Source of the DNA: an uncultured Candidatus Saccharibacteria bacterium
Lineage (GTDB): Bacteria > Patescibacteriota > Minisyncoccia > Phycocordibacterales > JACOZG01
DNA length: 64,000 nucleotides
Direction of reading: 5' to 3'
NCBI GenBank assembly: GCA_964651115.1
Contig: CAZYXJ010000002.1
Location: forward strand, 48,338-112,337
The position numbers and the translations under genes were made by a program. Positions 1,763 to 40,135 of the stretch are shown here, piece after piece (the stretch's first letter is position 1; every line of letters begins with the position of its first letter). Under the pieces are notes generated by a model. The model was not told the origin of the DNA, made no database searches, and saw only the letters and a list, made by a program, of their open reading frames with translations.

Positions 1763-1903
1763 AATCGGTTCCAATTGCACCCTTCGCTTGCGTCAGAGGA
1801 GCATTTATTTTCTAACCGTTATTTGATGCACTTATCCACTCGGTCGCCGAGGGCGAGTGGTTTACAATGACTCTGTTACTATTAATTAACTTCGACTTTC
1901 CCC

Positions 1904-4272: not shown

Positions 4273-4580
4273 GTGCGGTGTTGAGTAATCGCTCTCACTC
4301 TCGGCTTAGCCGGTAGTGGGGGAGGAAAGTCCGAACACTCAGCTGTCTTTTGGCAACAAGGGTAGTGGTTAACGGCCACCGGGAGCAATCCTCGAGGTGC
4401 GAACAGAGACGAGTCTTCTGTCTTCGGGCAGAAGGGTGAAACGGCTAAATCCTTACCTGAGTGCAAGGCCGGACTCTCAAGTCCTCACGGATTTAGAGAG
4501 GGTGCCGCTTGATCCGTACGGTAACGTACTGGACAGATAAATGATTACCTAAAACAGAATTCGGCTTACGGACACCGCAC
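4273..4580 (+). ncRNA. rnpB: RNase P RNA (bacterial type, reduced size ~308 nt)
   Basis: Conserved P4 elements are present: GGAGGAAAGTCCG near the 5' end and ACAGAATTCGGCTTAC near the 3' end. A GGGTGAAACGGC motif is also present. Helix P1 pairs 5' GTGCGGTGT with 3' ACACCGCAC. No ORF covers this interval. Confidence 0.7.
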
Positions 4581-4592
4581 GTTTGCATCAGA

Positions 4593-10475: not shown

Positions 10476-10850
10476 ATGCGCGAGTTTCAAGGCAAACGCC
10501 GGCTAAAGCAATTTTTTTATTCTCGGGCAACCGTGGCCTTATTGATTTTGGCCGTTTTGCTCTTAGGGAAAGCGGCCGCCGGTGTTTGGTGGCGGTCGCG
10601 GGGTGTGGCTGAGGAACGTCAGGCAGTTGATCAGGAGTTGGCGGAGGCGGTATCGCGCCGTCAGGAACTGACAGCGTCGATTGCTCGCTTGGAAACGGCT
10701 CGGGGTGTCGAGGCGGAGTTGCGATCGAAGTTTTCGGTGGCACGGCCAGGCGAGCGAGTGATTTCGGTGATCTCGTCTGGGTCAGCCGAACCGGTGGCGC
10801 CACAAGATCGGGGCTGGTGGGAGTGGGTAAGGAATTTTTTGCGGGATTAG
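10476..10850 (+). CDS. Septum formation initiator-like protein (FtsB/DivIC family, putative)
   Basis: A single N-terminal TM helix is followed by a coiled-coil (QELAEAVSRRQELTASIARLETARGVEAELRSKF), an architecture typical of FtsB/FtsL. The last 10 nt overlap tRNA-Gly. Confidence 0.4.
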   Translation: MREFQGKRRLKQFFYSRATVALLILAVLLLGKAAAGVWWRSRGVAEERQAVDQELAEAVSRRQELTASIARLETARGVEAELRSKFSVARPGERVISVISSGSAEPVAPQDRGWWEWVRNFLRD

Positions 10851-10914
10851 TTTAGTGGTAGGACGATTGCTTCCCAAGCAATAGGCGGGGGTTCGATTCC
10901 CCCATCCCGCACCA
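10841..10914 (+). tRNA. tRNA-Gly (anticodon CCC), CCA encoded
   Basis: I folded a cloverleaf by eye. The anticodon loop TTCCCAA sits on stem TTGC/GCAA. The T-arm is GGGGGTTCGATTCCCCC and the acceptor is GCGGGAT/ATCCCGC. Confidence 0.85.
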
Positions 10915-11193
10915 ATGTTCATCAAGAAGCAGGAAAATTTTACGTGCGAGCGCTGTGGTGCGGTGGTGGAGGGCGATGGCTATACCAATCATTGCCCCGC
11001 TTGTTTGTGGTCCAAGCACGTGGATGTGGAGCCGGGTGATCGCGCCGCCGAGTGCGGGGGCTTGATGCGTCCGGTTGAGTATCAGGCCGCTGGCGGCGGC
11101 TTTGATCTGATCCACGAGTGCCTCAAGTGTGGTCACCGCAAGCGTAACAAGGTGGCGCCGGATGATGACCTTGCTCGGCTAGCGGCCCTCTGA
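10915..11193 (+). CDS. RNHCP-domain zinc-ribbon protein
   Basis: The translation contains CERCG...YTNHCPACLWSKHVD...CLKCGH, which matches the RNHCP domain signature. Confidence 0.5.
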   Translation: MFIKKQENFTCERCGAVVEGDGYTNHCPACLWSKHVDVEPGDRAAECGGLMRPVEYQAAGGGFDLIHECLKCGHRKRNKVAPDDDLARLAAL

Positions 11194-11205
11194 TAAACTG
11201 CAGTC

Positions 11206-11454
11206 ATGAAAAAAGTTGCCATTTACACGACTCCGACTTGTACTTATTGCCAGATGACTAAAGAGTTTTTTAAGCAGAATGGGGTAGAGTATTCCGAATA
11301 TGACGTGGCCGCCGACGTGGCCAGGCGTCAGGAGATGGTCGGTAAGACTGGGCAGATGGGCGTACCGGTAATCTCGGTGACGGAGGAGGATGGGGAGGAG
11401 CACTTGATTGTAGGCTTCGATAAGGGCGGTTTGTCGGCGGCGCTCGGCATCTAG
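11206..11454 (+). CDS. Glutaredoxin-like protein (NrdH/glutaredoxin family)
   Basis: A CTYC active-site motif (TPTCTYCQMTKEFF) sits near the N-terminus of an ~80 aa thioredoxin fold. Confidence 0.7.
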   Translation: MKKVAIYTTPTCTYCQMTKEFFKQNGVEYSEYDVAADVARRQEMVGKTGQMGVPVISVTEEDGEEHLIVGFDKGGLSAALGI

Positions 11455-11461
11455 TTCGCCG

Positions 11462-11535
11462 GCCTCTATAGTTCAATGGATAGAACAGTCCCGTCCTAAG
11501 GGATCGATCCCTGTTCGATTCGGGGTAGAGGCGCC
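11462..11535 (+). tRNA. tRNA-Arg (anticodon CCT)
   Basis: A cloverleaf folds with acceptor GCCTCTA/TAGAGGC and anticodon loop GTCCTAA. The T-loop is TTCGATT. Confidence 0.75.
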
Positions 11536-11558
11536 TTAAAAAATGTTATACTAGCACC

Positions 11559-11816
11559 GTGGATCAGCAAGACAAAATTTTACTTAAACAAGTCGCCGAG
11601 CTAACGGAAGAGAATAATCGGCTGGTCCGCAAACTCGTCACTTCCCAGCGGTGGAATCGGATCCTCTTTTTTGCCAAGTGGTTCGTGGTAATCGCCCTAA
11701 CTTTGGGAGCTTATTATTACATCCAGCCATTGGTGGACCAGGTGATCGAGACTTATCGTAATTTAGGAATAAAAATTCCCGAGACCAATAGTCTGGAGAA
11801 GTGGTTTAGCCAGTAA
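11559..11816 (+). CDS. Hypothetical small membrane protein with N-terminal coiled-coil
   Basis: An 85 aa ORF has one TM helix (ILFFAKWFVVIALTLGAYYYI). It lies between two tRNAs. No family was recognised. Confidence 0.35.
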   Translation: MDQQDKILLKQVAELTEENNRLVRKLVTSQRWNRILFFAKWFVVIALTLGAYYYIQPLVDQVIETYRNLGIKIPETNSLEKWFSQ

Positions 11817-11867
11817 GCCCTAGGGTTTACTTTTGAGCCTTTTTTCTCTAAAATAAGCCCACCCGAT

Positions 11868-11943
11868 GCTTGGATAGCTCAGTTGGTAGAGCATTCCCCT
11901 GAAGAGGGAAGGGTCGCCGGTTCGAGCCCGGCTCCAAGCACCT
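11868..11943 (+). tRNA. tRNA-Phe (anticodon GAA)
   Basis: The 5' end reads GCTTGGATAGCTCAGTTGGTAGAGC. The anticodon loop CTGAAGA sits on stem TTCCC/GGGAA. The T-arm is GCCGGTTCGAGCCCGGC. Confidence 0.85.
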
Positions 11944-17064: not shown

Positions 17065-17091
17065 CAGATTAAAATTAAAATTATAAAAAGT

Positions 17092-17164
17092 GGGCGATAC
17101 AGGACTCGAACCTGTGACCTTTTCTACGTCAAAGAAACGCTCTAGCCAACTGAGCTAATCGCCC
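17092..17164 (-). tRNA. tRNA-Val (anticodon GAC)
   Basis: The reverse complement folds with acceptor GGGCGAT/ATCGCCC, anticodon loop TTGACGT and T-arm ACAGGTTCGAGTCCTGT. Confidence 0.85.
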
Positions 17165-17179
17165 ATTGCCGCGGGGGCG

Positions 17180-17268
17180 GGCGGAGGCGAGAGGATTTGA
17201 ACCTCTGAGGGGCTTTCGCCCCTGCCGCGTTTCGAATGCGGTGCCTTCAACCACTCAGCCACGCCTCC
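17180..17268 (-). tRNA. tRNA-Ser (anticodon CGA), long variable arm
   Basis: The reverse complement reads GGAGGCGTGGCTGAGTGGTTGAAGGCA... with anticodon loop TTCGAAA. The long extra arm (GGCAGGGGCGAAAGCCCCTC) and the T-arm GAGGTTCAAATCCTC fit a serine tRNA. Confidence 0.8.
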
Positions 17269-17433
17269 AGGGTTACGGCTGTAATCCTATCATCTTTTTG
17301 CCAAAAGCTCAAAAGATGCTATATTTTAGGCGCACGAGCCAGATAGCGGCCCTATCGTCCCTGCCTGCGCAGGCAGGTAATGGCTAGTGACATTCCGGAT
17401 AAAACAAAAAGAACTGTTTCGTAAATAATATAA

Positions 17434-17505
17434 GGCCCTATCGTCTAATGGCTAGGACATCACCCTCTCACGGTGGTAATCGGGGTTCGACTCCCCGTAG
17501 GGTCA
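17434..17505 (+). tRNA. tRNA-Glu (anticodon CTC)
   Basis: The 5' end reads GGCCCTATCGTCTAATGGCTAGGACA. The anticodon loop CTCTCAC sits on stem TCACC/GGTGG, and the T-arm is CGGGGTTCGACTCCCCG. Confidence 0.8.
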
Positions 17506-17672
17506 CAGGATCAAAAAAGATGTAGCCGGAGGTTACGTCTTTTTGCATCCCTAGTGATCTCTTGGCCGAGAGAGTTGAAAGTCACAGTCCGCCAGGGGGC
17601 GGACGAGGCGGGGTCGAGCAATCCGCCAGCGGGGCGGATATGCGTGACCACAGATTTTGATATAGTTATAAA

Positions 17673-24109: not shown

Positions 24110-24455
24110 GAGATAAAAAAAGCTGAAGTAATCTAGCTTCTTCGGCCTCCATTGTACTACCGTGGTCCAATCCTTTCAAATGAAGTAATCCGTGGATAAA
24201 TAAAAAGAGAAAATAATCGGCGTAATTTTTTTCAAATTCTGGCGCCTTTTTAGCAATCATCCCGCGATTAAAAATTAGCTCGCCCTCAGTGGTGGAGAGG
24301 GGGAAGGAGAGAACATCAGTCGGTTCGTCGAGTTGACGATAAGTTTTATTTAACTGCCGAATCGTCGCCCGGTTAACAAAGGCGACGGAAAGTTGATACT
24401 CGGGACCGAGAATCGTCTCTTTAATTTTGGTTTTAAGAGCGGCGGGCAGTGACAT
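24030..24455 (-). CDS. ybeY: Endoribonuclease YbeY (rRNA maturation factor)
   Basis: The TDVLSFP and HGLLHLKGLDH metal-binding motifs are present. The Arg-rich C-terminal tail overlaps the ftsA start by ~80 nt. Confidence 0.65.
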   Translation of the reverse strand: MSLPAALKTKIKETILGPEYQLSVAFVNRATIRQLNKTYRQLDEPTDVLSFPLSTTEGELIFNRGMIAKKAPEFEKNYADYFLFLFIHGLLHLKGLDHGSTMEAEEARLLQLFLSHASSHRRRPRHRKLRHQGGGRSRRAR

Positions 24456-27331: not shown

Positions 27332-27985
27332 GTGGGACTTACTCTTCGAGAGTGGTCTGCCATTGTGTCGGCGACGCTGGTGATTGTGGGTACGTTTTGG
27401 TATGTGACCTTGGTCCTTCTGCGGATCAAGATTCGCCCAGTACTCGCAAGCTGGATCGTCCTGGCTGGCACAATGACCTTGTCATTTGCCACCTACTGGA
27501 CGTCGCCGCGCCACAGCCTTGTCAGTAATGCTTGCAATGCGGCAAGTGTTATCTCGACTCTGGCAATTCTCGGGGCGGTGATCTGGATACACTGGAAGAC
27601 GGGCGGAGAACTCCGTTTCTCCCTTTTCCAGAAGTGGTGTTTGGGAGTTTCCGCTAGTATCGCCGCGCTTTGGATAACGCTGGTGTGGGGTTTGCATCGC
27701 ACCGGCACGGTGCCCAACGTCATGACGCAGATTTTGATGCTTATCGGTTATTTGGTAACCGCCGAGAAATTATGGCGAGCGACCAAGAACACCGAGAGCT
27801 TCTTCACTTGGGGGTGTATCATGATCGCTAGCGCGATCGCGCTCTACACCGCCTGGGTGAGCCGGGATGTGCTCGCGGGACTCTATGCTACCCGAGCCAC
27901 CTTGGCCTCTGCGACAATCGTTGTTTTGATGTACCGCCTTGAGCGTAGGCAAAATGTGGTACTAGAAACAGTCACTACTCAGTAA
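27332..27985 (+). CDS. Hypothetical polytopic membrane protein
   Basis: About 6 hydrophobic helices are predicted. It has a GTG start with a good RBS and its own promoter. No family was recognised. Confidence 0.45.
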   Translation: MGLTLREWSAIVSATLVIVGTFWYVTLVLLRIKIRPVLASWIVLAGTMTLSFATYWTSPRHSLVSNACNAASVISTLAILGAVIWIHWKTGGELRFSLFQKWCLGVSASIAALWITLVWGLHRTGTVPNVMTQILMLIGYLVTAEKLWRATKNTESFFTWGCIMIASAIALYTAWVSRDVLAGLYATRATLASATIVVLMYRLERRQNVVLETVTTQ

Positions 27986-32525: not shown

Positions 32526-33050
32526 ATGTTTTCTGACCCTGTTCAGAATGTCGCCGCTCTCGGTCTAACTGAGGGGATGCGGGTGGCTGATTTTGGCGCC
32601 GGTACCGGCGACCACACTTTAGCTTTGGGTAAACGGGTCGGCGCTCACGGCAAGGTTTACGCGATTGACGTAAACAAAAATTTGCTTGATCGCTTGCAGT
32701 CAGAAGCCAAGCGTCAAGGTATTTTAAATTTAGAGATTATTTGGGGTGATCTCGAAAAGCGCGGCGGCTCGACGCTTAAAGAGGACGCGGTGGATCTGGT
32801 TTTGCTGGCCAATGTCCTCTTTCAATCTGAGGCGCGATATTCGATGCTGTTGGAGGCTCGGCGGATCGTCCGTCCAGGCGGTCGGGTGGCGGTGATCGAG
32901 TGGAGTGATTCGTTTGCTGGTTTGGGGCCAGCGCCCGAGAGCGTGGTCCAGCCGATGGCGCTAAACGACATTGCTATCCAAGCTGGCCTCCGCCCCGAGA
33001 GAGAGTTTGCCGCTGGCGCGCACCATTATGGTCGGCTTTTTGTAAAATAA
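32526..33050 (+). CDS. Class I SAM-dependent methyltransferase
   Basis: The VADFGAGTGDHT SAM-binding motif I is present. Confidence 0.6.
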   Translation: MFSDPVQNVAALGLTEGMRVADFGAGTGDHTLALGKRVGAHGKVYAIDVNKNLLDRLQSEAKRQGILNLEIIWGDLEKRGGSTLKEDAVDLVLLANVLFQSEARYSMLLEARRIVRPGGRVAVIEWSDSFAGLGPAPESVVQPMALNDIAIQAGLRPEREFAAGAHHYGRLFVK

Positions 33051-33054
33051 TTTT

Positions 33055-34356
33055 ATGAATAATCTTAGTACTTTCCAGATCATCCTGCTCCTCGGCTTTG
33101 TCTTTGTGGTTTTTGTTGGCGTCCTGGTTTTCGCGGGCATTATTCCCGGTTTTCGAGCGCCAGAAGGAGGTTCGGGTGGTCAGGTGACGATCTGGGGCAC
33201 GATCCCATCGGAAACGATGAATCAGTTCTTTTCTGACTTTCAGGATGCCCACGAGTCGGAGTTTACGGTTAATTATAATTACGTCGATCCGCGCCGGATT
33301 GAAAACGAATTTGTTAACGCCCTCGCCGCTGGTCGGGGTCCGGATCTAGTCATTTGGCCGCATTCGTATTTACTTAAGCATCGAGATAAGTTGGCCGCGA
33401 TCCCTTACGAGCAATTGGCCGTGCGCAATTTCCGAGAAAATTTTGTTCGGTCGGCGAACGTCTATCTCTTCCCGCAAGGAATTTTGGGCCTGCCCCTAAC
33501 CGTTGATCCTCTCGTCCTTTATTACAATCAAGATTTGTTGACCACTGCGCGTTTGGTGGCGCCACCGCGCGCCTGGTCGCAGATCCAAGAGACGGTTAAG
33601 GCGTTAACCAAAGTTGATGATCGGGGGAGTTTGACGCAATCGGCCATCGCGATGGGGACCTTTAATAATAACGCCAATGCTCGAGACATTTACGCTCTGC
33701 TAACTTTGCAGGCGGGCAATCCCATTTTTGAATTTGGCGCCGAGGGAGGGAAGATCGTGCTTCAAGAGAGTCGAGGTTACGCGCAGAGTCCGGCGATCGA
33801 AGCTCTGAACTTTTTTGTGCGCTTTATTGATCCGGCTAATTCTCTCTATAGTTGGAACGCCGCTCAGATTGACGCACGGCAAGCTTTTGTGCGCGGAACG
33901 CTTGGGCTGTATCTTGGCTATGCTAGTGAGTACAATACTTTGCGACGTCAAAACCCCCAGCTATCAATTGGGGCTGCTCCGGTTCCACAACTGGGTGCCG
34001 CTGGCGACGCGACGATTGCTCAATTAACTGGCGTGTCGCTGGTTAAAAATTCCGCCAACTTAAATACTGCCGCCACCGTGGCCTACTATCTCTCGGCCGA
34101 AGCTTTTGCTGGTCCGTTGGCTCAAGCTTCGGGCCTGCCACCGGCGGCGGTTGATCTGGTGCGGGTGGATCCGCCAGATCCGGTGGCTAGTGTGGCTTAT
34201 GAGTCGGCGATTATTGCTCGCGCCTGGCTGGATCCTGATCCAGTGGCTTCGCGGGCCATCTTCCAGCGCCTGGTCGAGACGTATACCAGCGGCCGCGAAG
34301 AGGTTGGCTCGGCCATCAATCGCGCCCAGCTCGAACTGCAAGCCTTAGTCCGATAA
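33055..34356 (+). CDS. Extracellular solute-binding protein-like (membrane-anchored)
   Basis: An N-terminal TM anchor is followed by a ~400 aa periplasmic-type domain, and the composition resembles ABC sugar-binding proteins. The assignment is tentative. Confidence 0.4.
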   Translation: MNNLSTFQIILLLGFVFVVFVGVLVFAGIIPGFRAPEGGSGGQVTIWGTIPSETMNQFFSDFQDAHESEFTVNYNYVDPRRIENEFVNALAAGRGPDLVIWPHSYLLKHRDKLAAIPYEQLAVRNFRENFVRSANVYLFPQGILGLPLTVDPLVLYYNQDLLTTARLVAPPRAWSQIQETVKALTKVDDRGSLTQSAIAMGTFNNNANARDIYALLTLQAGNPIFEFGAEGGKIVLQESRGYAQSPAIEALNFFVRFIDPANSLYSWNAAQIDARQAFVRGTLGLYLGYASEYNTLRRQNPQLSIGAAPVPQLGAAGDATIAQLTGVSLVKNSANLNTAATVAYYLSAEAFAGPLAQASGLPPAAVDLVRVDPPDPVASVAYESAIIARAWLDPDPVASRAIFQRLVETYTSGREEVGSAINRAQLELQALVR

Positions 34357-34366
34357 TTTTTAACCT

Positions 34367-34756
34367 ATGATGTGGCGACAAAAATTTTTTGTTCATCTCG
34401 TGGCGGCGGCGCTTGTGCTGTTGGGTGGCGCGGGGGTAGTTTGGGCGCAAACGCAAACTTCGGGTTTGGTGCCCTGCGAGGGGTTAGAAGATTGCAATTG
34501 GGATAAATTTTTAAAGCTTTTGGGTAATATTTATGGTTGGTTGGTGCGCTTGGCCTTGCCGCTGGCGACGATTATGATCATGGTGTCTGGAGGGATGTAT
34601 CTGGTCTATTCGACTAATCCCGGTAAGCGAGAGTTGGCGAAAAAATATCTTCTGGCCTCGGTGATTGGTTTGGTGGTTGTGCTAGGGTCTTATATAATAG
34701 TAGCAACGATTATCAGATTTATCGCCGACCCCAGCACGGTTAGAAAACTATTATGA
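34367..34756 (+). CDS. Small secreted 2-TM protein, paralog 1 of array (TrbC/VirB2-like T4SS pilin candidate)
   Basis: It has a signal peptide (LVLLGGAGVVWAQTQ). The mature part has two TM helices with the shared pattern ...MVSGGMYLVYSTNPGKRELAKKYLLASVIGLVVVLG... Confidence 0.4.
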   Translation: MMWRQKFFVHLVAAALVLLGGAGVVWAQTQTSGLVPCEGLEDCNWDKFLKLLGNIYGWLVRLALPLATIMIMVSGGMYLVYSTNPGKRELAKKYLLASVIGLVVVLGSYIIVATIIRFIADPSTVRKLL

Positions 34757-35136
34757 TTTTGAGCTTATTGTTTAAAGTACTTCATGCCGCCGAAGAGGGT
34801 TATACCGGTTTTGGTGGCGAGGAGGGTTATAGCGGCGGCGGTGATTTTGGAGATTCTGCTGGGGGCATCCTCCAGAATTATTTAAAGTCTGGCATTGATA
34901 GTATCCCTCAGTTGATTTCTTACATCCTTAAATTAGCCGCCATGATTGGCTTGCCGATCGTGGTGCTATTTATTATGTGGGCTGGTTTTATGTATGTGAC
35001 GGCGCGTGGCGATCAGGCCAAGATCAGCCGAGCCCATGACGCCTTTCTTTACAGCGTCATTGGTGCGGCTCTGGTCTTGGGCGCGGCGGTGATTGCGGCG
35101 GCCATCCAGGGGACGATTAGTAATTTAAGCGTTTAA
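34753..35136 (+). CDS. Small 2-TM protein, paralog 2 of array (Gly/Glu-rich N-terminus)
   Basis: The shared core is FIMWAGFMYVTARGDQAKISRAHDAFLYSVIGAALVLG. The start overlaps the preceding gene by 4 nt. Confidence 0.4.
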   Translation: MILSLLFKVLHAAEEGYTGFGGEEGYSGGGDFGDSAGGILQNYLKSGIDSIPQLISYILKLAAMIGLPIVVLFIMWAGFMYVTARGDQAKISRAHDAFLYSVIGAALVLGAAVIAAAIQGTISNLSV

Positions 35137-35139
35137 ATT

Positions 35140-35550
35140 ATGCGTTACAAATGGTTATTAGCTTTGGTGTTGGTCTTGCCTCTCGTGACCTTGGCTCAAG
35201 TGACTGGTCCGGGCGGGGTTAGCGGGCCGTGGTCGCCCGATGTCGCGGCGGCCAACGACACCTCCACCTTCGCGGGGATGGTTAACTACGTGATTATCAA
35301 TATTGGTGGGCCGATCAGGAATTTGATTGTGGCCGGAGCCCTGATTTACTTTTTGTGGGGCCTGTTCCAGTACATCAATTCTGGCGGTGATCCGGCGACG
35401 AGGAAGAAGGCCACCGGTACAATGACTTGGGGAATAATTATTTTAGCGGTGATGGTTTCGGTTTGGGGATTGGTCAATCTCTTACTAGACACCTTCCCGC
35501 TGGATAGTAAAACAACACCAAAACCTCCCCAACTTCTCCTGTCTAACTAG
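35140..35550 (+). CDS. Small secreted 2-TM protein, paralog 3 of array
   Basis: It has a signal peptide (LLALVLVLPLVTLAQV). The core is IYFLWGLFQYINSGGDPATRKKATGTMTWGIIILAVMVSVWGLVNLL. Confidence 0.45.
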   Translation: MRYKWLLALVLVLPLVTLAQVTGPGGVSGPWSPDVAAANDTSTFAGMVNYVIINIGGPIRNLIVAGALIYFLWGLFQYINSGGDPATRKKATGTMTWGIIILAVMVSVWGLVNLLLDTFPLDSKTTPKPPQLLLSN

Positions 35551-35605
35551 TGGAGCTGTGGTATACTGTAGAGCATTATAAAGATTATTAAGTTAAGTTT
35601 ATTTT

Positions 35606-35992
35606 ATGGTTCAGAAAATTAAAGGCTTAGTTTTGGGTTTGGCTGCCTTTTTGCCACTGGCAACTTTCGCTCAAAGCGCTTTTCGTAGCATTGGCGGTGC
35701 TTTCAAAGAAGTAATTGCCATTCTCAACACATATGTCATCCCGTTTATTATCGGTTTAGGGGTGATCTATTTCTTGTGGGGCTTGCTCGGTTATATTCGT
35801 AAGGCAGGAGATGAGAAGGAACGAGAAGCCGCTAAACATCAAATGATCTATGGAATCATTATCTTGTTTGTAATGACAGCAGTTTGGGGGCTAGTCAACG
35901 TGCTTACTGATACGCTTGATCTCAAAAAGGCGATTCCTAACCTGCCTGATGTTCCCACAATTAACGTCGGGGATGATACTGTTAATCGCTAA
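35606..35992 (+). CDS. Small secreted 2-TM protein, paralog 4 of array
   Basis: It has a signal peptide (GLAAFLPLATFAQSA). The core IYFLWGLLGYIRKAGDEKEREAAKHQMIYGIIILFVMTAVWGLVNVL is near-identical in pattern to paralog 3. Confidence 0.45.
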   Translation: MVQKIKGLVLGLAAFLPLATFAQSAFRSIGGAFKEVIAILNTYVIPFIIGLGVIYFLWGLLGYIRKAGDEKEREAAKHQMIYGIIILFVMTAVWGLVNVLTDTLDLKKAIPNLPDVPTINVGDDTVNR

Positions 35993-35998
35993 TCTGCA

Positions 35999-36262
35999 AT
36001 GATTGCTTACGCCGCTGAGACTTTCCCTCTGCTCAATCAGATCCAGACCAGTATTATCAATCCTTTGATCTTACTTGGTTTGGCGGCGGCTGTGCTGGTG
36101 TTCTTGTACGGCTTGTTTGAGATGTTGCGGGGGATTAATCAGCCCGCCCAGGTAGAGAAGGGTACCAAACATATTATCTGGGGGGTGATCGGACTGACAA
36201 TTATGGTTTCTGCCTTTGGGCTGATTAACTTGATTTGTTCGACGATTGGGGCGCAGTGTTAA
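35999..36262 (+). CDS. Small 2-TM protein, paralog 5 of array
   Basis: The core is VFLYGLFEMLRGINQPAQVEKGTKHIIWGVIGLTIMVSAFGLINLI. Confidence 0.4.
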   Translation: MIAYAAETFPLLNQIQTSIINPLILLGLAAAVLVFLYGLFEMLRGINQPAQVEKGTKHIIWGVIGLTIMVSAFGLINLICSTIGAQC

Positions 36263-36280: not shown

Positions 36281-36317
36281 AAAAAGGCCGTCGCGCAAGC
36301 GACGGCCTAGTTGTTTT
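36281..36317. terminator. Bidirectional terminator between the pilin-like array and the convergent membrane protein gene
   Basis: The hairpin GGCCGTCGCgcaaGCGACGGCC is flanked by AAAAA on one side and TTGTTTT on the other. Confidence 0.55.
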
Positions 36318-37230
36318 AGGGGAGAGGAAGACCTTTTTTTAGGTTCTCCCTCTCTTCCCTTGAGAGCGGTTGAATTGTTAATTTGGCGGTCGTTGGAAAA
36401 ATCCCCAACGACTGCAGGCGAAACTTTTTGTCGTTTTCGCCTATTTTCCCCACCTTTCTTTCGACTTCTGGTGAAATTTCCCGTTCCTTCCCCGAGGCGT
36501 TTTGGCAGAGAGTTCTGCCGCTTACCTCAAGTTTGAATCTTACCAGGGGAGGGATTTCGATCCATCTGCTCCACCTCTCTACCGGAACCTCGATCAACTC
36601 GGTCACAGTGGAGGTTGGCGTGGCGATGGACGTATTCTCCACGGGAGCGGGTTGTTTGGCGTAGGCGCGCTCCCGCCCCAGATCGTTGAGGGACAATTTC
36701 CCCATCCCCCAGGTGTCGGCGTAAGCCAACGCCACGAAGGCGATCGATCCAACGAGGATCCATCGCCGAGCGCTGACGGATAGATTTGTGGCCGTCAGCA
36801 GTCCCGCAATCATGGTTGTAATGATCGCAGTGACGAGCAACTTGGGGGCCCAGGTTGGCACTTGACCGATCTGGAGGTCTCTCCATTCTTCCCATTCCCG
36901 CCAAGAGATGAGCAGAACGCAAAGACCAAAGGTCAAGACCAGCGCCAGGCTGATCTTGATCACGTCGCGGACGGTGTTGGCCGTACCGGACATGGCGCCA
37001 CTGGTGAACCGCCAAATTTTTTTAGCGACCCACACCCCGCCGAGCACGCCAGCGATGCTTAAAACGATCAGCCCATTTAATCGCTCACCTGACATCTCCG
37101 AGATTGGCGGGGGAGAGAGGTCTTTTTCTGGTGAAGGGTCAGAAAACAAGACCCAGGTCACGCAGAGCGCCAGGCCCACCACCGACAGGGTGATCAAGGC
37201 CATCCAATGGCGACGGATGAATTCCTTCAT
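36316..37230 (-). CDS. Hypothetical membrane protein (4-5 TM) with soluble C-terminal domain
   Basis: A 304 aa ORF with hydrophobic helices in the N-terminal two thirds. It is separated from the SPFH gene by a terminator. Confidence 0.4.
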   Translation of the reverse strand: MKEFIRRHWMALITLSVVGLALCVTWVLFSDPSPEKDLSPPPISEMSGERLNGLIVLSIAGVLGGVWVAKKIWRFTSGAMSGTANTVRDVIKISLALVLTFGLCVLLISWREWEEWRDLQIGQVPTWAPKLLVTAIITTMIAGLLTATNLSVSARRWILVGSIAFVALAYADTWGMGKLSLNDLGRERAYAKQPAPVENTSIATPTSTVTELIEVPVERWSRWIEIPPLVRFKLEVSGRTLCQNASGKEREISPEVERKVGKIGENDKKFRLQSLGIFPTTAKLTIQPLSREERENLKKGLPLP

Positions 37231-37381: not shown

Positions 37382-38680
37382 TTAGGAGTTTGACGAGTTG
37401 GGAGGTAAGAGTGTCTTGGTGGGCGGGAGAACGGCCTGGGCGGTGCCCAGTAATTCTCGGAATCCCTCCAGACCCAAGAGCACCACCTTTCCCTCGCCCT
37501 GGGCGATGGCTTTGGCCACTTCAGCCCCTTGTATTTGCTCGGGCGACAAGCCGCTTTCTTCCGCTGACTCTCTGAGGCCTTTGCCTATTTCCGCAATCAG
37601 CCGTCTTTGGTTTTCCGCTGCCGCTTGGCCCTCAGCGATTTTCTTTAACCGTTCTTGCTCTGCTTTGGCGGCAGCCGCCTGAATCCCCACTTGCTCGGCC
37701 ATGGCGGTAGCTTGGGCCTTACTTACCCCCCTCTGAATACCCGGGCCCTTAATCGAGACTGAAAGAAGGTTTATTCCCCAGCTATGATTGGGATTGATGT
37801 CTCCCGAGTGGGCGAGTTCCGAGGGGCTACCCTTTTCGCTCTCTGGTCGTTTGGCCCCCTCTTCACCTATTGCCCACTCCAAAGCATTTTTGATTTTGGC
37901 TTCGAGGTGAGAAAGGAGAAGAAGGTAAACCGCTGGGTTCATCCTGGGTACTAGGGCTTGTAACTGGGAGATGACTATGTCTTCCAGTTGAGTGGCCGCA
38001 GCTTCAATAGTGCCAATTCGCGGAATAAATTCCACCGTATTGGCTACCTGGCCCCGGAAGACGATTCGGGGATCCCACGTCTGACCCTCTATAACGTTGA
38101 GAGGGTCAGTCTTGGACTTTGCGGTCAGCATGACTTTTTCCCACAGTCTTTCAGCTTGCTGGACCTGGGCTGGGTCAGCCGGATTAAATACCAGCCAATC
38201 TTCCATTTTTTCGGTGCCGTCTTTGAATCCGACGCCGCTGCCGAAGACGACCCGGAAGTCCCGGGTATGACCTCTTATAAGTAAAGTATTTTCATCTACT
38301 TGTTCGGCCCTGGCGATGCCGACATTACTTGAGTCTACTTCTCGGTCCGAGGCAATTTCGACTTGAAAATCAAGCCCAGAAATTGTTGTGACCGTACAAA
38401 ATCCTCGAGGGGCGTAGTATAGGCCCGAACCGAGGTGCTGAATCGGCTTGCCGAAAAATAATTTGGCACCGATAAGGGGAGCTGTGATTTCTCCCAAACT
38501 GGTAACGTTGTACCAGGCGAGGGCCGCGATCACCAGCAGAATTGCCGGTATTTTGATCACGAAGAGGTCAATACGGCCGAGCCCAAGGCCAACCCCTAGA
38601 ACGGCCAGGTGGGCCACGATGACCCAGAACCAAAATCTATTATTGTATTCAGAGATTTTGGCTTGCCACTTGTCTTCCAT
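37382..38680 (-). CDS. SPFH/Band 7 (flotillin/YqiK-like) membrane protein
   Basis: An N-terminal TM hairpin is followed by a C-terminal region (WGINLLSVSIKGPGIQRGVSKAQATAMAEQ...AEQERLKKIAEGQAAAENQRRLIAEIG...KVVLLG) that resembles SPFH C-terminal Ala/Glu-rich helices. An intrinsic terminator lies downstream (37335-37375). Confidence 0.5.
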   Translation of the reverse strand: MEDKWQAKISEYNNRFWFWVIVAHLAVLGVGLGLGRIDLFVIKIPAILLVIAALAWYNVTSLGEITAPLIGAKLFFGKPIQHLGSGLYYAPRGFCTVTTISGLDFQVEIASDREVDSSNVGIARAEQVDENTLLIRGHTRDFRVVFGSGVGFKDGTEKMEDWLVFNPADPAQVQQAERLWEKVMLTAKSKTDPLNVIEGQTWDPRIVFRGQVANTVEFIPRIGTIEAAATQLEDIVISQLQALVPRMNPAVYLLLLSHLEAKIKNALEWAIGEEGAKRPESEKGSPSELAHSGDINPNHSWGINLLSVSIKGPGIQRGVSKAQATAMAEQVGIQAAAAKAEQERLKKIAEGQAAAENQRRLIAEIGKGLRESAEESGLSPEQIQGAEVAKAIAQGEGKVVLLGLEGFRELLGTAQAVLPPTKTLLPPNSSNS

Positions 38681-38874: not shown

Positions 38875-39630
38875 ATGAACCCCAGTAACCCTGCACCCGC
38901 ACCAACGCCGACGACCCCAAATCCAGCTCCCCCGGCTGTTGCGGCCCCAAATTGGAAGGAATCTTGGGAAACAGCCAAGGTTCCAGTCGTAGTCATCGTC
39001 ATGGCGACCTCGCTGTTTTTTGCGATAATGATGTTTTCCTCGGAGGGGTGCCGTCAGTCGGTGCGCAATTTGCGCTTAAGTGCGCAGGAGCGCGACCGCG
39101 AGGTGGCGGCTTCGCCCGTGATTCAAGAGAAGATGCGCGGCCTCGCGAGGGACGAGATTCGCACGGCCACTCAGCCGGGCGGTACCTTGGAGGAGGTTCG
39201 TGGTCGTTACCACGTTACCACCTCCAGCCCCGCAGTTCGACCCCCGCTCGAGAGCGGCATCCTCGTCCAGAACTACTGGATGAAAATGCGCGATGGTAGT
39301 GAGGGCTCGTGTTATGCAGGGGATTCACTCCAGGTGGTGGATCGAGTGGGCGATGCCTCCTGCATCGTCACGTGCGTTCATCTTCGTAATGAGGATTCTT
39401 CTCGTCGGCATGAGGTTGCGGAGGGTCGAGGGGAGAATGCGACAGCGATTATTCCCTACCAGGAGTATCGAAAACTGGTGGGAGAGTCGTCGATTGCTTC
39501 TCGCCCCACCGCCGCGAAGCCGCGGGTGGAGTTCTCCGGACCGCGAGAGATCAAGATCCCTCAGCGGATCGAGGTGGAAGTAAAGTATTTACCTCCACCG
39601 TGTCCCGGCCCGCCTTGCGGCGGCAAGTAG
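38875..39630 (+). CDS. Hypothetical membrane-anchored protein with Pro-rich N-terminus and Cys-containing C-terminus
   Basis: It has a strong RBS (GAAAGGAGGG). The N-terminus is PAPAPTPTTPNPAPPAVAAP followed by a TM helix, and the C-terminus is PPPCPGPPCGG. A terminator follows (39640-39665). Confidence 0.45.
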   Translation: MNPSNPAPAPTPTTPNPAPPAVAAPNWKESWETAKVPVVVIVMATSLFFAIMMFSSEGCRQSVRNLRLSAQERDREVAASPVIQEKMRGLARDEIRTATQPGGTLEEVRGRYHVTTSSPAVRPPLESGILVQNYWMKMRDGSEGSCYAGDSLQVVDRVGDASCIVTCVHLRNEDSSRRHEVAEGRGENATAIIPYQEYRKLVGESSIASRPTAAKPRVEFSGPREIKIPQRIEVEVKYLPPPCPGPPCGGK

Positions 39631-39721: not shown

Positions 39722-39805
39722 GGTGGGCGGGAGAGGACTTGAACCTCCACGGATTGCTCCACTAGCTCCTAAGGCTAGCGCGTCTGCCAATTTCGCCACC
39801 CGCCC
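39722..39805 (-). tRNA. tRNA-Leu (anticodon TAG), long variable arm
   Basis: The reverse complement reads GGGCGGGTGGCGAAATTGGCAGACGCGCTAGCCTTAGGAGCTAG..., with anticodon loop CTTAGGA and a long extra arm. Confidence 0.75.
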
Positions 39806-39825
39806 CTTTTAAATTTTACCGAGTG

Positions 39826-39898
39826 CCCCGTGAGGGATTCGAACCCCCGACCGTTCGCTTAAGAGGCGACTGCTCTACCAACTGAGCTAACGAGGCGC
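39826..39898 (-). tRNA. tRNA-Lys (anticodon CTT)
   Basis: The reverse complement reads GCCTCGTTAGCTCAGTTGGTAGAGCAGTCGCCTCTTAAGCGAC..., with anticodon loop CTCTTAA and T-loop TTCGAAT. Confidence 0.8.
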
Positions 39899-39936
39899 AC
39901 GCTTTTTATACCACAGAAAATCTTTTTCCGAAACGG

Positions 39937-40018
39937 TGCCCGGGGTGGGGGTCGAACCCACACGCCTTACGGCGATCGATCTTAAGTCGATTGCGTCTGC
40001 CAATTCCGCCACCCGGGC
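39937..40018 (-). tRNA. tRNA-Leu (anticodon TAA), long variable arm
   Basis: The reverse complement reads GCCCGGGTGGCGGAATTGGCAGACGCAATCGACTTAAGATCGAT..., with anticodon loop CTTAAGA. Confidence 0.75.
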
Positions 40019-40061
40019 AATTTTATGGGATGATCTTAAGGTTCTCTTTTGCTCCACTCCC

Positions 40062-40135
40062 GGAGGCCTGGGCGGGAATTGAACCCGCGCATAAGGGTTT
40101 TGCAGACCCTTGCCTTACCACTTGGCTACCAGGCC
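40062..40135 (-). tRNA. tRNA-Cys (anticodon GCA)
   Basis: The reverse complement reads GGCCTGGTAGCCAAGTGGTAAGGCAAGGGTCTGCAAAACCCTT..., with anticodon loop CTGCAAA. Confidence 0.75.

Follow-up and report, generated by a model that had tools for sequence, protein, structure and literature searches.

Why should a patescibacterial chromosome carry five divergent genes for small pilin-like proteins in a row, set among housekeeping genes and joined to a gene for a solute-binding protein? The question is raised by a stretch of 64,000 nucleotides (nt), here called the window, of contig CAZYXJ010000002.1 (positions 48,338 to 112,337; assembly GCA_964651115.1), recorded as deriving from an uncultured Candidatus Saccharibacteria bacterium. 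A sequence-only reading of the window had pointed to five consecutive plus-strand genes for proteins of 87–136 amino acids (aa) as candidate TrbC/VirB2-like pilins of a kind known from type IV secretion systems (T4SS). Inspection of the open reading frames (ORFs) confirmed these genes to the nucleotide, with products of 129, 127, 136, 128 and 87 aa. The explanation favoured here, with a probability of roughly 60%, is that they encode five non-redundant VirB2-type subunits of a Patescibacterium of the class Paceibacteria (Parcubacteria), made from one operon and assembled into a heteromeric filament or conduit that is served by a distally encoded T4SS motor. The five genes are the following:

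34367..34756, plus strand: pil1, family-1 pilin of 129 aa, with a leader (VWA/QT), a predicted extracellular N-terminal segment that bears a conserved cysteine pair (C37, C43), and a two-helix hairpin
34753..35136, plus strand: pil2, family-2 pilin of 127 aa, with the hairpin at about residues 53–123; its start overlaps the pil1 stop (ATGA)
35140..35550, plus strand: pil3, middle ("core") pilin of 136 aa, with a leader (TLA/QV), a hairpin at residues 44–118 and a Pro-rich C-terminal tail
35606..35992, plus strand: pil4, penultimate core pilin of 128 aa, with a leader (TFA/QS)
35999..36262, plus strand: pil5, short terminal pilin of 87 aa, leaderless and consisting of the hairpin only

The family assignment comes from searches with hidden Markov models (HMMs). 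All five proteins exceed the gathering score (26.6 bits) of the Pfam family PF18895, T4SS_pilin, at 37.3 bits for pil1, 37.7 for pil2, 38.3 for pil3, 29.5 for pil4 and 34.6 for pil5; the match extends over the loop and the two helices (about positions 5–71 of the 71 in the profile), and precomputed PF18895 matches exist on the identical genes in locus L001. The other family expected from the sequence, PF04956 (TrbC/VirB2, gathering score 27.9 bits), gave a divided result: pil1 passes with 30.4 bits (model positions 8–98 of 98), pil2 stays below the cutoff with 23.8 bits, and pil3–pil5 produce no match. The scores against NCBIfam NF045849, the Mbov_0395 pilin-like conjugal transfer protein of a mycoplasma integrative and conjugative element, range from 18.6 to 30.9 bits against a cutoff of 40, which indicates a related superfamily with membership not established. 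The 23 homologues of pil3 all belong to PF18895 where annotated, and an exhaustive profile search returned 16,352 family clusters with a distinctive motif in common. Since all five proteins pass the PF18895 gathering score and the family is kept in hundreds of genomes, the pilin match is not a chance one, and their identification as VirB2-type (T4SS-type) pilin homologues is supported.

The predicted architecture agrees with that family. Hydropathy reveals in each of the five pilins two long hydrophobic segments separated by a short charged loop, and the loop sequences and the FLWGL, WG..I and GLVNL motifs quoted in the sequence-only reading are present. The AlphaFold2 (AF2) model of pil3 consists of a leader helix, a disordered stretch and helices 44–80 and 85–118 joined by a 4-residue turn, with pLDDT values of 80–86 in the core, so that the two-helix hairpin with its charged loop is borne out. 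The AQ-type signal peptides ascribed to all five hold for three of them. Judged by sequence rules, leaders with n-, h- and c-regions and with small residues at positions −3/−1 before a Gln are present in pil1, pil3 and pil4. The N-terminus of pil2, MILSLLFKVLHAAEEGY, is atypical: it has no basic n-region, its h-region is short and interrupted, and a stretch rich in Gly and acidic residues comes next. No leader precedes pil5, whose ORF is already maximal; leaderless relatives of this protein are common (P0006, P0008, P0009, P0012, P0022). The net charge of the loop is +1 to +2 in all five pilins of the window, and among 238 pilins it averages +0.58, compared with −0.37 and −0.34 in the flanks. 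By the positive-inside rule, the pilins would be oriented N-out/C-out with the loop inside.

Short and hydrophobic proteins can match pilin models through compositional bias, and the five might then be unrelated small proteins with two transmembrane (TM) helices, such as holin-like, bacteriocin-immunity or other small hydrophobic ones. Fold searches cannot separate a pilin hairpin from many other helical hairpins, and several weak matches to unrelated TM families, with E values of 0.01–0.3, were obtained. A coincidence of this kind is nevertheless very improbable, given five scores above a curated cutoff, matches over both helices and the loop, and the motif common to the whole set of family clusters. 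Among the Pfam and NCBIfam results no holin or immunity family appeared even at E ≤ 10, so the holin-type hit named beforehand as counter-evidence did not turn up, and no phage or toxin context was seen around the array, the surroundings of which are housekeeping genes. The holin reading was rejected, there being no match to a holin family, and so was that of a type IV pilus with a class III signal, for which neither the motif nor a family match was found.

The five proteins share the hairpin, as had been claimed, but do not form a single close-knit set of paralogues. In blastp comparisons they split into two weakly linked groups, pil1 and pil2 with 33% identity, and pil3, pil4 and pil5 with 30–39% (pil3 and pil4 being 39% identical), while links between the groups do not exceed 23% identity at E values of about 1e-4. 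To what extent this divergence is shared between genomes can be seen from 64 complete arrays (36 with five genes and 12 with six) comprising 316 pilins. The best match of 286 of the 316 pilins lies in another genome and not in a paralogue of the same array. For pil5 the best match is the array's final gene in 57 of 59 genomes, for pil4 it stands at array position −1 in 38 of 58, and for pil2 at position −3 in 35 of 63; the pil1 of the window maps to position −4, and its counterpart is the first gene of the array in most genomes. When the pilins are classified by HMMs, the order 1-2-4-4-5 is found 25 times, 1-2-4-4-4-5 10 times and 1-2-3-4-5 5 times. The order is therefore stereotyped: a pilin with a Cys pair, a second type, two to five core pilins and a short terminal pilin. 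At least two cysteines occur in 56 of the 57 members of family 1, with the motif C-x8-C-x-F, and the terminal genes of family 5 are short, with a median of 91 aa. Copy number varies, from 2 to 5, in the middle class only, and this class alone has lineage-specific duplications. The positions of the pilins are kept across lineages at the level of candidate phyla.

The sequence-only reading had taken the array as a sign of antigenic or functional diversification. In its antigenic form this would mean recent tandem duplication yielding interchangeable pilin variants, with which antigenicity or host range could be varied. The low identity within the array (18–39%, similar to the 25% mean of arrays in Patescibacteria) and the variable copy number of the middle class can be cited in favour of such duplication. 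The prevalence of best matches in other genomes and the stereotyped order 1-2-M-M-5 instead point to fixed functional specialisation and speak against ongoing or recent antigenic variation; for families 1, 2 and 5, with features such as the Cys pair of family 1 and the short, leaderless form of family 5 preserved, duplication is already largely refuted, and as an account of the whole array it is improbable. The paralogues are old, fixed and non-redundant subunits, a pattern that argues for distinct roles in one assembly.

The pilin genes form the downstream part of an operon in which a gene for a methyltransferase dependent on S-adenosylmethionine (SAM) is followed by one for a MalE-type binding protein, pil1, pil2, pil3, a candidate internal promoter, pil4, pil5 and a terminator. 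Its remaining elements are:

32526..33050, plus strand: class I SAM-dependent methyltransferase of 174 aa without a TM segment (Pfam Methyltransf_31/25/11, Ubie_methyltran)
33055..34356, plus strand: membrane-anchored homologue of MalE-type (family 1, oligosaccharide-type) solute-binding proteins, 433 aa
35551..35605, plus strand: 55-nt gap, the sole sizeable intergenic gap in the operon, with an extended −10-like TGgTATACT at 35557-35567
36285..36308, both strands: bidirectional intrinsic-terminator-like hairpin, 10-bp stem with 8 GC pairs

The operon is tightly packed, with spacings of −4 to 10 nt and the 55 nt before pil4 as the only exception: the binding-protein gene and pil1 are separated by 10 nt, pil1 shares 4 nt with pil2, and the next junctions measure 3, 55 and 6 nt. 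The terminator hairpin, located between the stop of pil5 (36262) and the end of a minus-strand gene (36316), serves both convergent units.

The binding protein consists of an N-terminal TM helix (residues 6–28), a flexible linker and a two-lobed alpha/beta domain. It matches Pfam SBP_bac_8 at 2.9e-16, and PDB profile matches cover residues 41–431 (4r9f at 1.2e-16, MalE at about 1e-10). Its AF2 model (pLDDT 89.8, pTM 0.84) has as its best Foldseek match the cyclo/maltodextrin-binding protein 2zyo (E 1.4e-22, TM-scores of 0.72/0.80), and the structural matches comprise binders of malto-, cyclo- and manno-oligosaccharides. With 43 bits against a cutoff of 291 it falls far below the MalE equivalog and can be regarded as a full-length but distant MalE-type homologue. 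The fold is thus shared over its full length with the solute-binding proteins (SBPs) of MalE-type ATP-binding cassette (ABC) importers, from which this protein differs in being TM-anchored, always followed by pilins, twice fused to them and devoid of an adjacent permease or ATPase gene; no permease or ATPase gene of an ABC importer was found around it in the window, nor among the listed genes of L002, L004, L006, L168 and L170.

The linkage of binding protein and pilins is strict. A binding-protein profile scan, with one genome per species, returned at least 555 relatives, of which the loci of the best 80 were examined. Pilins follow the binding-protein gene on the same strand in all 77 informative loci, the contigs of the other three ending at the binding-protein gene. 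Conversely, in a metagenome search from the pilin side the binding-protein gene is directly adjacent in 36 of the 36 loci having at least 1.5 kb upstream. The methyltransferase, for which NCBIfam matches are sub-threshold only, is encoded directly 5′ of the binding protein in 71 of the 77 genome loci and in 29 of 30 metagenome loci. This co-transcribed gene, present in about 93% of the loci, has a predicted cytoplasmic product, and a role in pilin modification would be a guess only. The gene gyrA lies upstream in about 80% of the loci. The group also persists where the surroundings change: GroEL-LemA-TPM takes the place of gyrA in L168, and the flanks are different in L170, yet methyltransferase, binding protein and pilins stay together in both. 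Within the binding protein itself, an unusually conserved TM anchor, as for an intramembrane contact, was considered and rejected, its conservation being 0.475 compared with 0.513 for the remainder. An FQ dipeptide just before the anchor (residues 7–8 in the window) is (near-)invariant in more than 100 homologues, and it is the sole position exceeding 80%.

In some genomes the partners are joined in a single polypeptide. In-frame fusions of the binding protein to a family-1 pilin occur in L076/L085 and in P0094/P0098, and on a tree of the binding domain the two pairs fall into different clades, whose common ancestor also has 119 unfused proteins as descendants, so that two independent fusion events are most parsimonious. 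Their topology is coherent: an outside domain, a linker and an N-out hairpin. The first pilin of L023 (4722-6347) combines a Peptidase_S8 domain (residues 178–348) with T4SS_pilin (450–510), so that the pil1 position accepts extracellular cargo of both kinds in other genomes. Extensions of 200–430 aa without a Pfam match are borne by further first- or second-position pilins (L022 11285-13341, L055 11393-12721, L064 11320-12726, L082 11258-12418). A word-indexed search with pil1 returned two near-identical proteins only and no cargo fusions. The top matches of the exhaustive search contain two or three core pilin domains per chain behind a single leader, connected by Gly/Ser/Pro linkers (P0146, P0148, P0157, P0160), and one tandem core-pilin polypeptide (L170 3343-4419) sits where the middle pilins stand in a typical methyltransferase-SBP-pilin module. 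Co-assembly of the products is supported by the three kinds of fusion, that is, binding protein with pil1, protease with pilin and core pilins in tandem, and the last of these lends indirect support to a putative extracellular polymerisation of the pilins.

The gap at 35551-35605 is a candidate internal promoter for pil4 and pil5. Such a gap is a common property of these operons, since across 102 arrays the penultimate pilin gene is preceded by a gap with a median of 95 nt, 86% of these gaps measuring 40 nt or more, compared with medians of 6–14 nt at the other junctions (examples of long spacing are L025, L022, L038, L033 and L054). An oriented DnaA-box-like motif, TTATCCACA, is present in 30 of 84 such gaps, mostly 82–104 nt upstream of the start codon; shuffled sequences give 3.0 ± 1.7 motif-bearing gaps, and the enrichment over the locus background is 12-fold. 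The 55-nt gap of the window itself does not contain this motif. That the motif is a generic promoter element was rejected, for it is rare upstream of gyrA and of the genes for S1, IF2, the methyltransferase and LactB3 in the same loci. Elsewhere in the window, DnaA-box-like 9-mers with one mismatch are located at 1832-1840 (plus strand), about 72 nt upstream of the gene for a B12-type ribonucleotide reductase (RNR; start 1904), and at 24191-24199 (minus strand), about 82 nt upstream of ftsA (start 24109, minus strand). Their spacing is the same as in the pilin gaps, and there may be a small set of DnaA-responsive genes.

Arrays of this kind are already known, and the description of the present one as unusual does not stand: arrays of 2–11 genes have been published for Patescibacteria (PMC12102498; PMC10633639; PMC12857230), and all related genomes that were examined have this locus type. 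The closest known counterpart is the six-gene VirB2-like array SEML1_0014-0019 of Ca. Southlakia epibionticum ML1, which is essential and is located inside a T4SS locus (Wang et al. 2023, PMC10633639). Both consist of tandem, divergent two-helix pilins of PF18895, some also matching PF04956, of about 100–185 aa, in a monoderm Patescibacterium and without a relaxase-type conjugation context. The Southlakia genes, however, stand directly beside those for VirB6-like, PrgI and VirB4 proteins and have no adjacent binding-protein gene, whereas the array of the window has no T4SS gene nearby and is joined to the genes for a methyltransferase and for a binding protein of the MalE type. VirB2-like arrays are also covered in a T4SS review of 2025 (PMC12857230).

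The survey by Quinonero-Coronel et al. 2025 (PMC12102498) reports 441 VirB2 arrays of 2–11 genes in 383 Patescibacteria assemblies, with a mean identity of 25% and a maximum of 54%, most abundant in Microgenomatia and Saccharimonadia. The array of the window belongs to this kind, with at least two tandem PF18895/PF04956 genes of low mutual identity on a patescibacterial chromosome; the protein families and the array habit are the same, and its identities of 18–39% fit those reported there. According to Fig. S9 (ring 5) and the methods of that paper, arrays were scored within ±20 coding sequences of virB4, while in the window no virB4 lies in the roughly 30 kb that flank the array on either side. 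Array diversity is read there as possible host-range versatility. Its main text names no binding-protein partner (the terms SBP, solute and substrate-binding have 0 occurrences), and the parts consulted contain no statement on positional orthology or on an internal promoter. The locus type with its methyltransferase and binding-protein genes, virB4-distal, ordered and occasionally fused, appears to be undescribed in the searched literature.

Canonical VirB2/TrbC/TraA pilins (PF04956) share with the present ones the pair of hydrophobic helices, the short basic loop and a leader (predicted here for three of the five), and pil1 passes their cutoff. A canonical system has a single pilin gene, located within the T4SS operon of a diderm; the present monoderm has five distinct genes, two of which lack a normal leader, and they are unlinked to an ATPase. 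Several divergent virB2 copies in tandem are also known from Bartonella and Anaplasma phagocytophilum (as cited in PMC12102498), where they are read as antigenic or host-interaction variants, while the present paralogues are deep positional orthologues in a fixed order.

Under the favoured explanation, each pilin would enter the cytoplasmic membrane as a hairpin, with both termini outside (N-out/C-out) and the basic loop on the inner side. For pil1, pil3 and pil4 this would occur via Sec with cleavage of the leader, for pil5 and perhaps pil2 without a leader. The subunits would then be drawn into one heteromeric filament or conduit, of which core pilins of the pil3/pil4 type would make up the bulk, with pil4 as the candidate major subunit and pil5 as a base or cap. 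Together with pil2, pil1 may be a specialised subunit, the disulfide-stabilised outer segment of which would dock or carry the oligosaccharide-type binding protein at the cell surface. In type II secretion systems and type IV pili, one abundant subunit and several low-copy pilins or pseudopilins are encoded together, some with extra outer domains. The parallel is an analogy and no homology is claimed, since the fold, the leader (no class III prepilin signal is present here) and the machinery differ. The weakest step concerns the motor, which would most likely be the virB4/virB6/prgI-type T4SS encoded elsewhere on the genome; the homology with the Southlakia array and the presence of VirB4 in 2,417 of 3,035 Patescibacteria assemblies (about 80%) make such a distal T4SS the most likely candidate. 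The assembly would function at the contact with a host cell. As regards context, dnaA, dnaN and similar genes are abundant near virB4 in Paceibacteria, according to PMC12102498, and T4SS pilins are among the most highly expressed genes of unknown function in enrichment cultures of Patescibacteria, including Paceibacteria (PMC10936435).

Several observations weigh against this explanation, or against parts of it. In agreement with the sequence-only reading, no VirB4/VirB11/VirD4-like ATPase was found among the large and most mid-sized ORFs of the window that were scanned (the longest being of about 900 aa). T4SS genes were likewise absent from the 10 kb on either side of the array in about 160 related loci, and among the large flanking ORFs without a homologue in the window there was no recurrent Walker-A family, although small or divergent T4SS parts could escape such a search. 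Foldseek comparison of the pil3 model with the PDB returned nothing at E ≤ 1e-3; a helical hairpin by itself does not discriminate between folds, so that structure speaks neither for nor against VirB2 homology. A PDB sequence profile search with A3 gave marginal matches only, to FliL (E 0.043) and to the pKM101 pilin TraM (8cw4, E 0.15). With the fold and PDB profile searches uninformative or marginal, the case for VirB2 homology is carried by the Pfam profiles. The putative roles as shaft, tip and base are read from position, conservation and fusions, and the conserved neighbourhood could be due in part to the strong synteny of the region, with gyrA so often upstream. No sighting of a pilus in any Paceibacterium was found in the searched literature.

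A rival reading, which the sequence-only reading had already allowed for, is a use of the fold that is independent of any T4SS, in which the binding protein and the pilin hairpins, with about 10 TM helices, would form a self-contained envelope complex without VirB4, for example a device for uptake or anchoring that depends on the binding protein. It is a serious rival on account of the lack of T4SS genes within ±10 kb in the roughly 160 loci, and in this lineage the array never adjoins such genes. It would also fit the invariable sharing of an operon with a MalE-type binding protein, near which no gene for a matching ABC permease or ATPase is found, the existence of SBP::pilin fusions and a subunit composition as fixed as in a defined complex. 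We nevertheless consider it rather unlikely. The T4SS is the only known role of the VirB2 family, the homologous array of Saccharibacteria lies inside a T4SS locus and both are essential, VirB4 is present in most Patescibacteria assemblies, and no similarity to a transporter family rises above noise (DctQ, E 0.035). Distance from virB4 is weak evidence by itself, because VirB2-like genes lie away from virB4 in about 40% of the VirB4 genomes that have them (1,135 of 1,948 being near).

A bolder proposal, speculative and on balance doubtful, is a conduit primed by the binding protein. Docked on pil1 or fused to it, the binding protein would capture a metabolite or glycan of the host at the heteropolymer's tip or base, the whole serving as an uptake or attachment device between epibiont and host, maybe independently of a T4SS ATPase, with expression of the major subunit perhaps tied to the cell cycle via the DnaA-box internal promoter. 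Reviews have speculated on uptake from the host by the T4SS of Patescibacteria (PMC12857230). If true, the proposal would provide a first molecular handle on the role of VirB2-like pilins in Patescibacteria, and in the largest class of a phylum that represents a large share of bacterial diversity, lives on other cells and has, in its one genetically tractable species, an essential T4SS and pilin array. Apart from this proposal, the Paceibacteria pilins, as a fixed five-part set tied to an oligosaccharide-type binding protein (in some genomes by covalent fusion) and unlinked from the ATPase genes, give a hitherto loosely described array the outline of a defined complex, with a soluble binding domain, a predicted contact with pil1 and candidates for the major subunit and for a regulatory site. 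If, on the other hand, the linkage is ordinary synteny, the locus is just another case of the published array type.

Apart from the array, the window is a piece of housekeeping chromosome. It encodes RNR, MurJ, LepA, a class I tRNA synthetase, FtsA/FtsZ, HisRS and Pth, as well as S1, GyrA, IF2, ClpB, TopA, ParB, 14 tRNAs and the RNase P RNA. Four further genes have products without an assigned family:

27332-27985, plus strand: protein without a Pfam family (Pfam scan only)
36316-37230, minus strand: 304-aa membrane protein convergent on the array, without a Pfam/NCBIfam family; a homologue in 0 of 77 related loci
37382-38680, minus strand: 432-aa protein with a weak SPFH/Band_7 match, without a Pfam/NCBIfam family; detectable in 11 of 77 loci
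38875-39630, plus strand: 251-aa protein without a Pfam/NCBIfam family; detectable in 0 of 77 loci

That the convergent genes downstream are members of the module was rejected on these blastp counts. A fast-evolving stretch lies directly 3′ of a very conserved operon, and a cluster of tRNA genes (Leu, Lys, Leu, Cys) at 39722-40135 divides it from infB; two other clusters, at 10841-11942 and 17090-17506, account with this one for most of the tRNAs of the window. A class A bacterial RNase P RNA (4273-4584, plus strand; 131 bits, full-length match to the model) is located between the RNR gene and a gene for a protein with tetratricopeptide (TPR) repeats.

The related loci bear names of Parcubacteria/Paceibacteria, namely Vogel-, Zambryski-, Kaiser-, Taylor-, Nomura-, Wolfe-, Adler- and Lloydbacteria. 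Many records of metagenome-assembled genomes entitled "uncultured Candidatus Saccharibacteria bacterium" (L008, L010-L013 and other CAY*/CAZ* records) have synteny of the Parcubacteria type, and their GyrA proteins are 58–75% identical to that of the window and to those of named Vogel- and Zambryskibacteria. The Saccharibacteria titles of these records look like generic labels and not like true assignments to Saccharimonadia.

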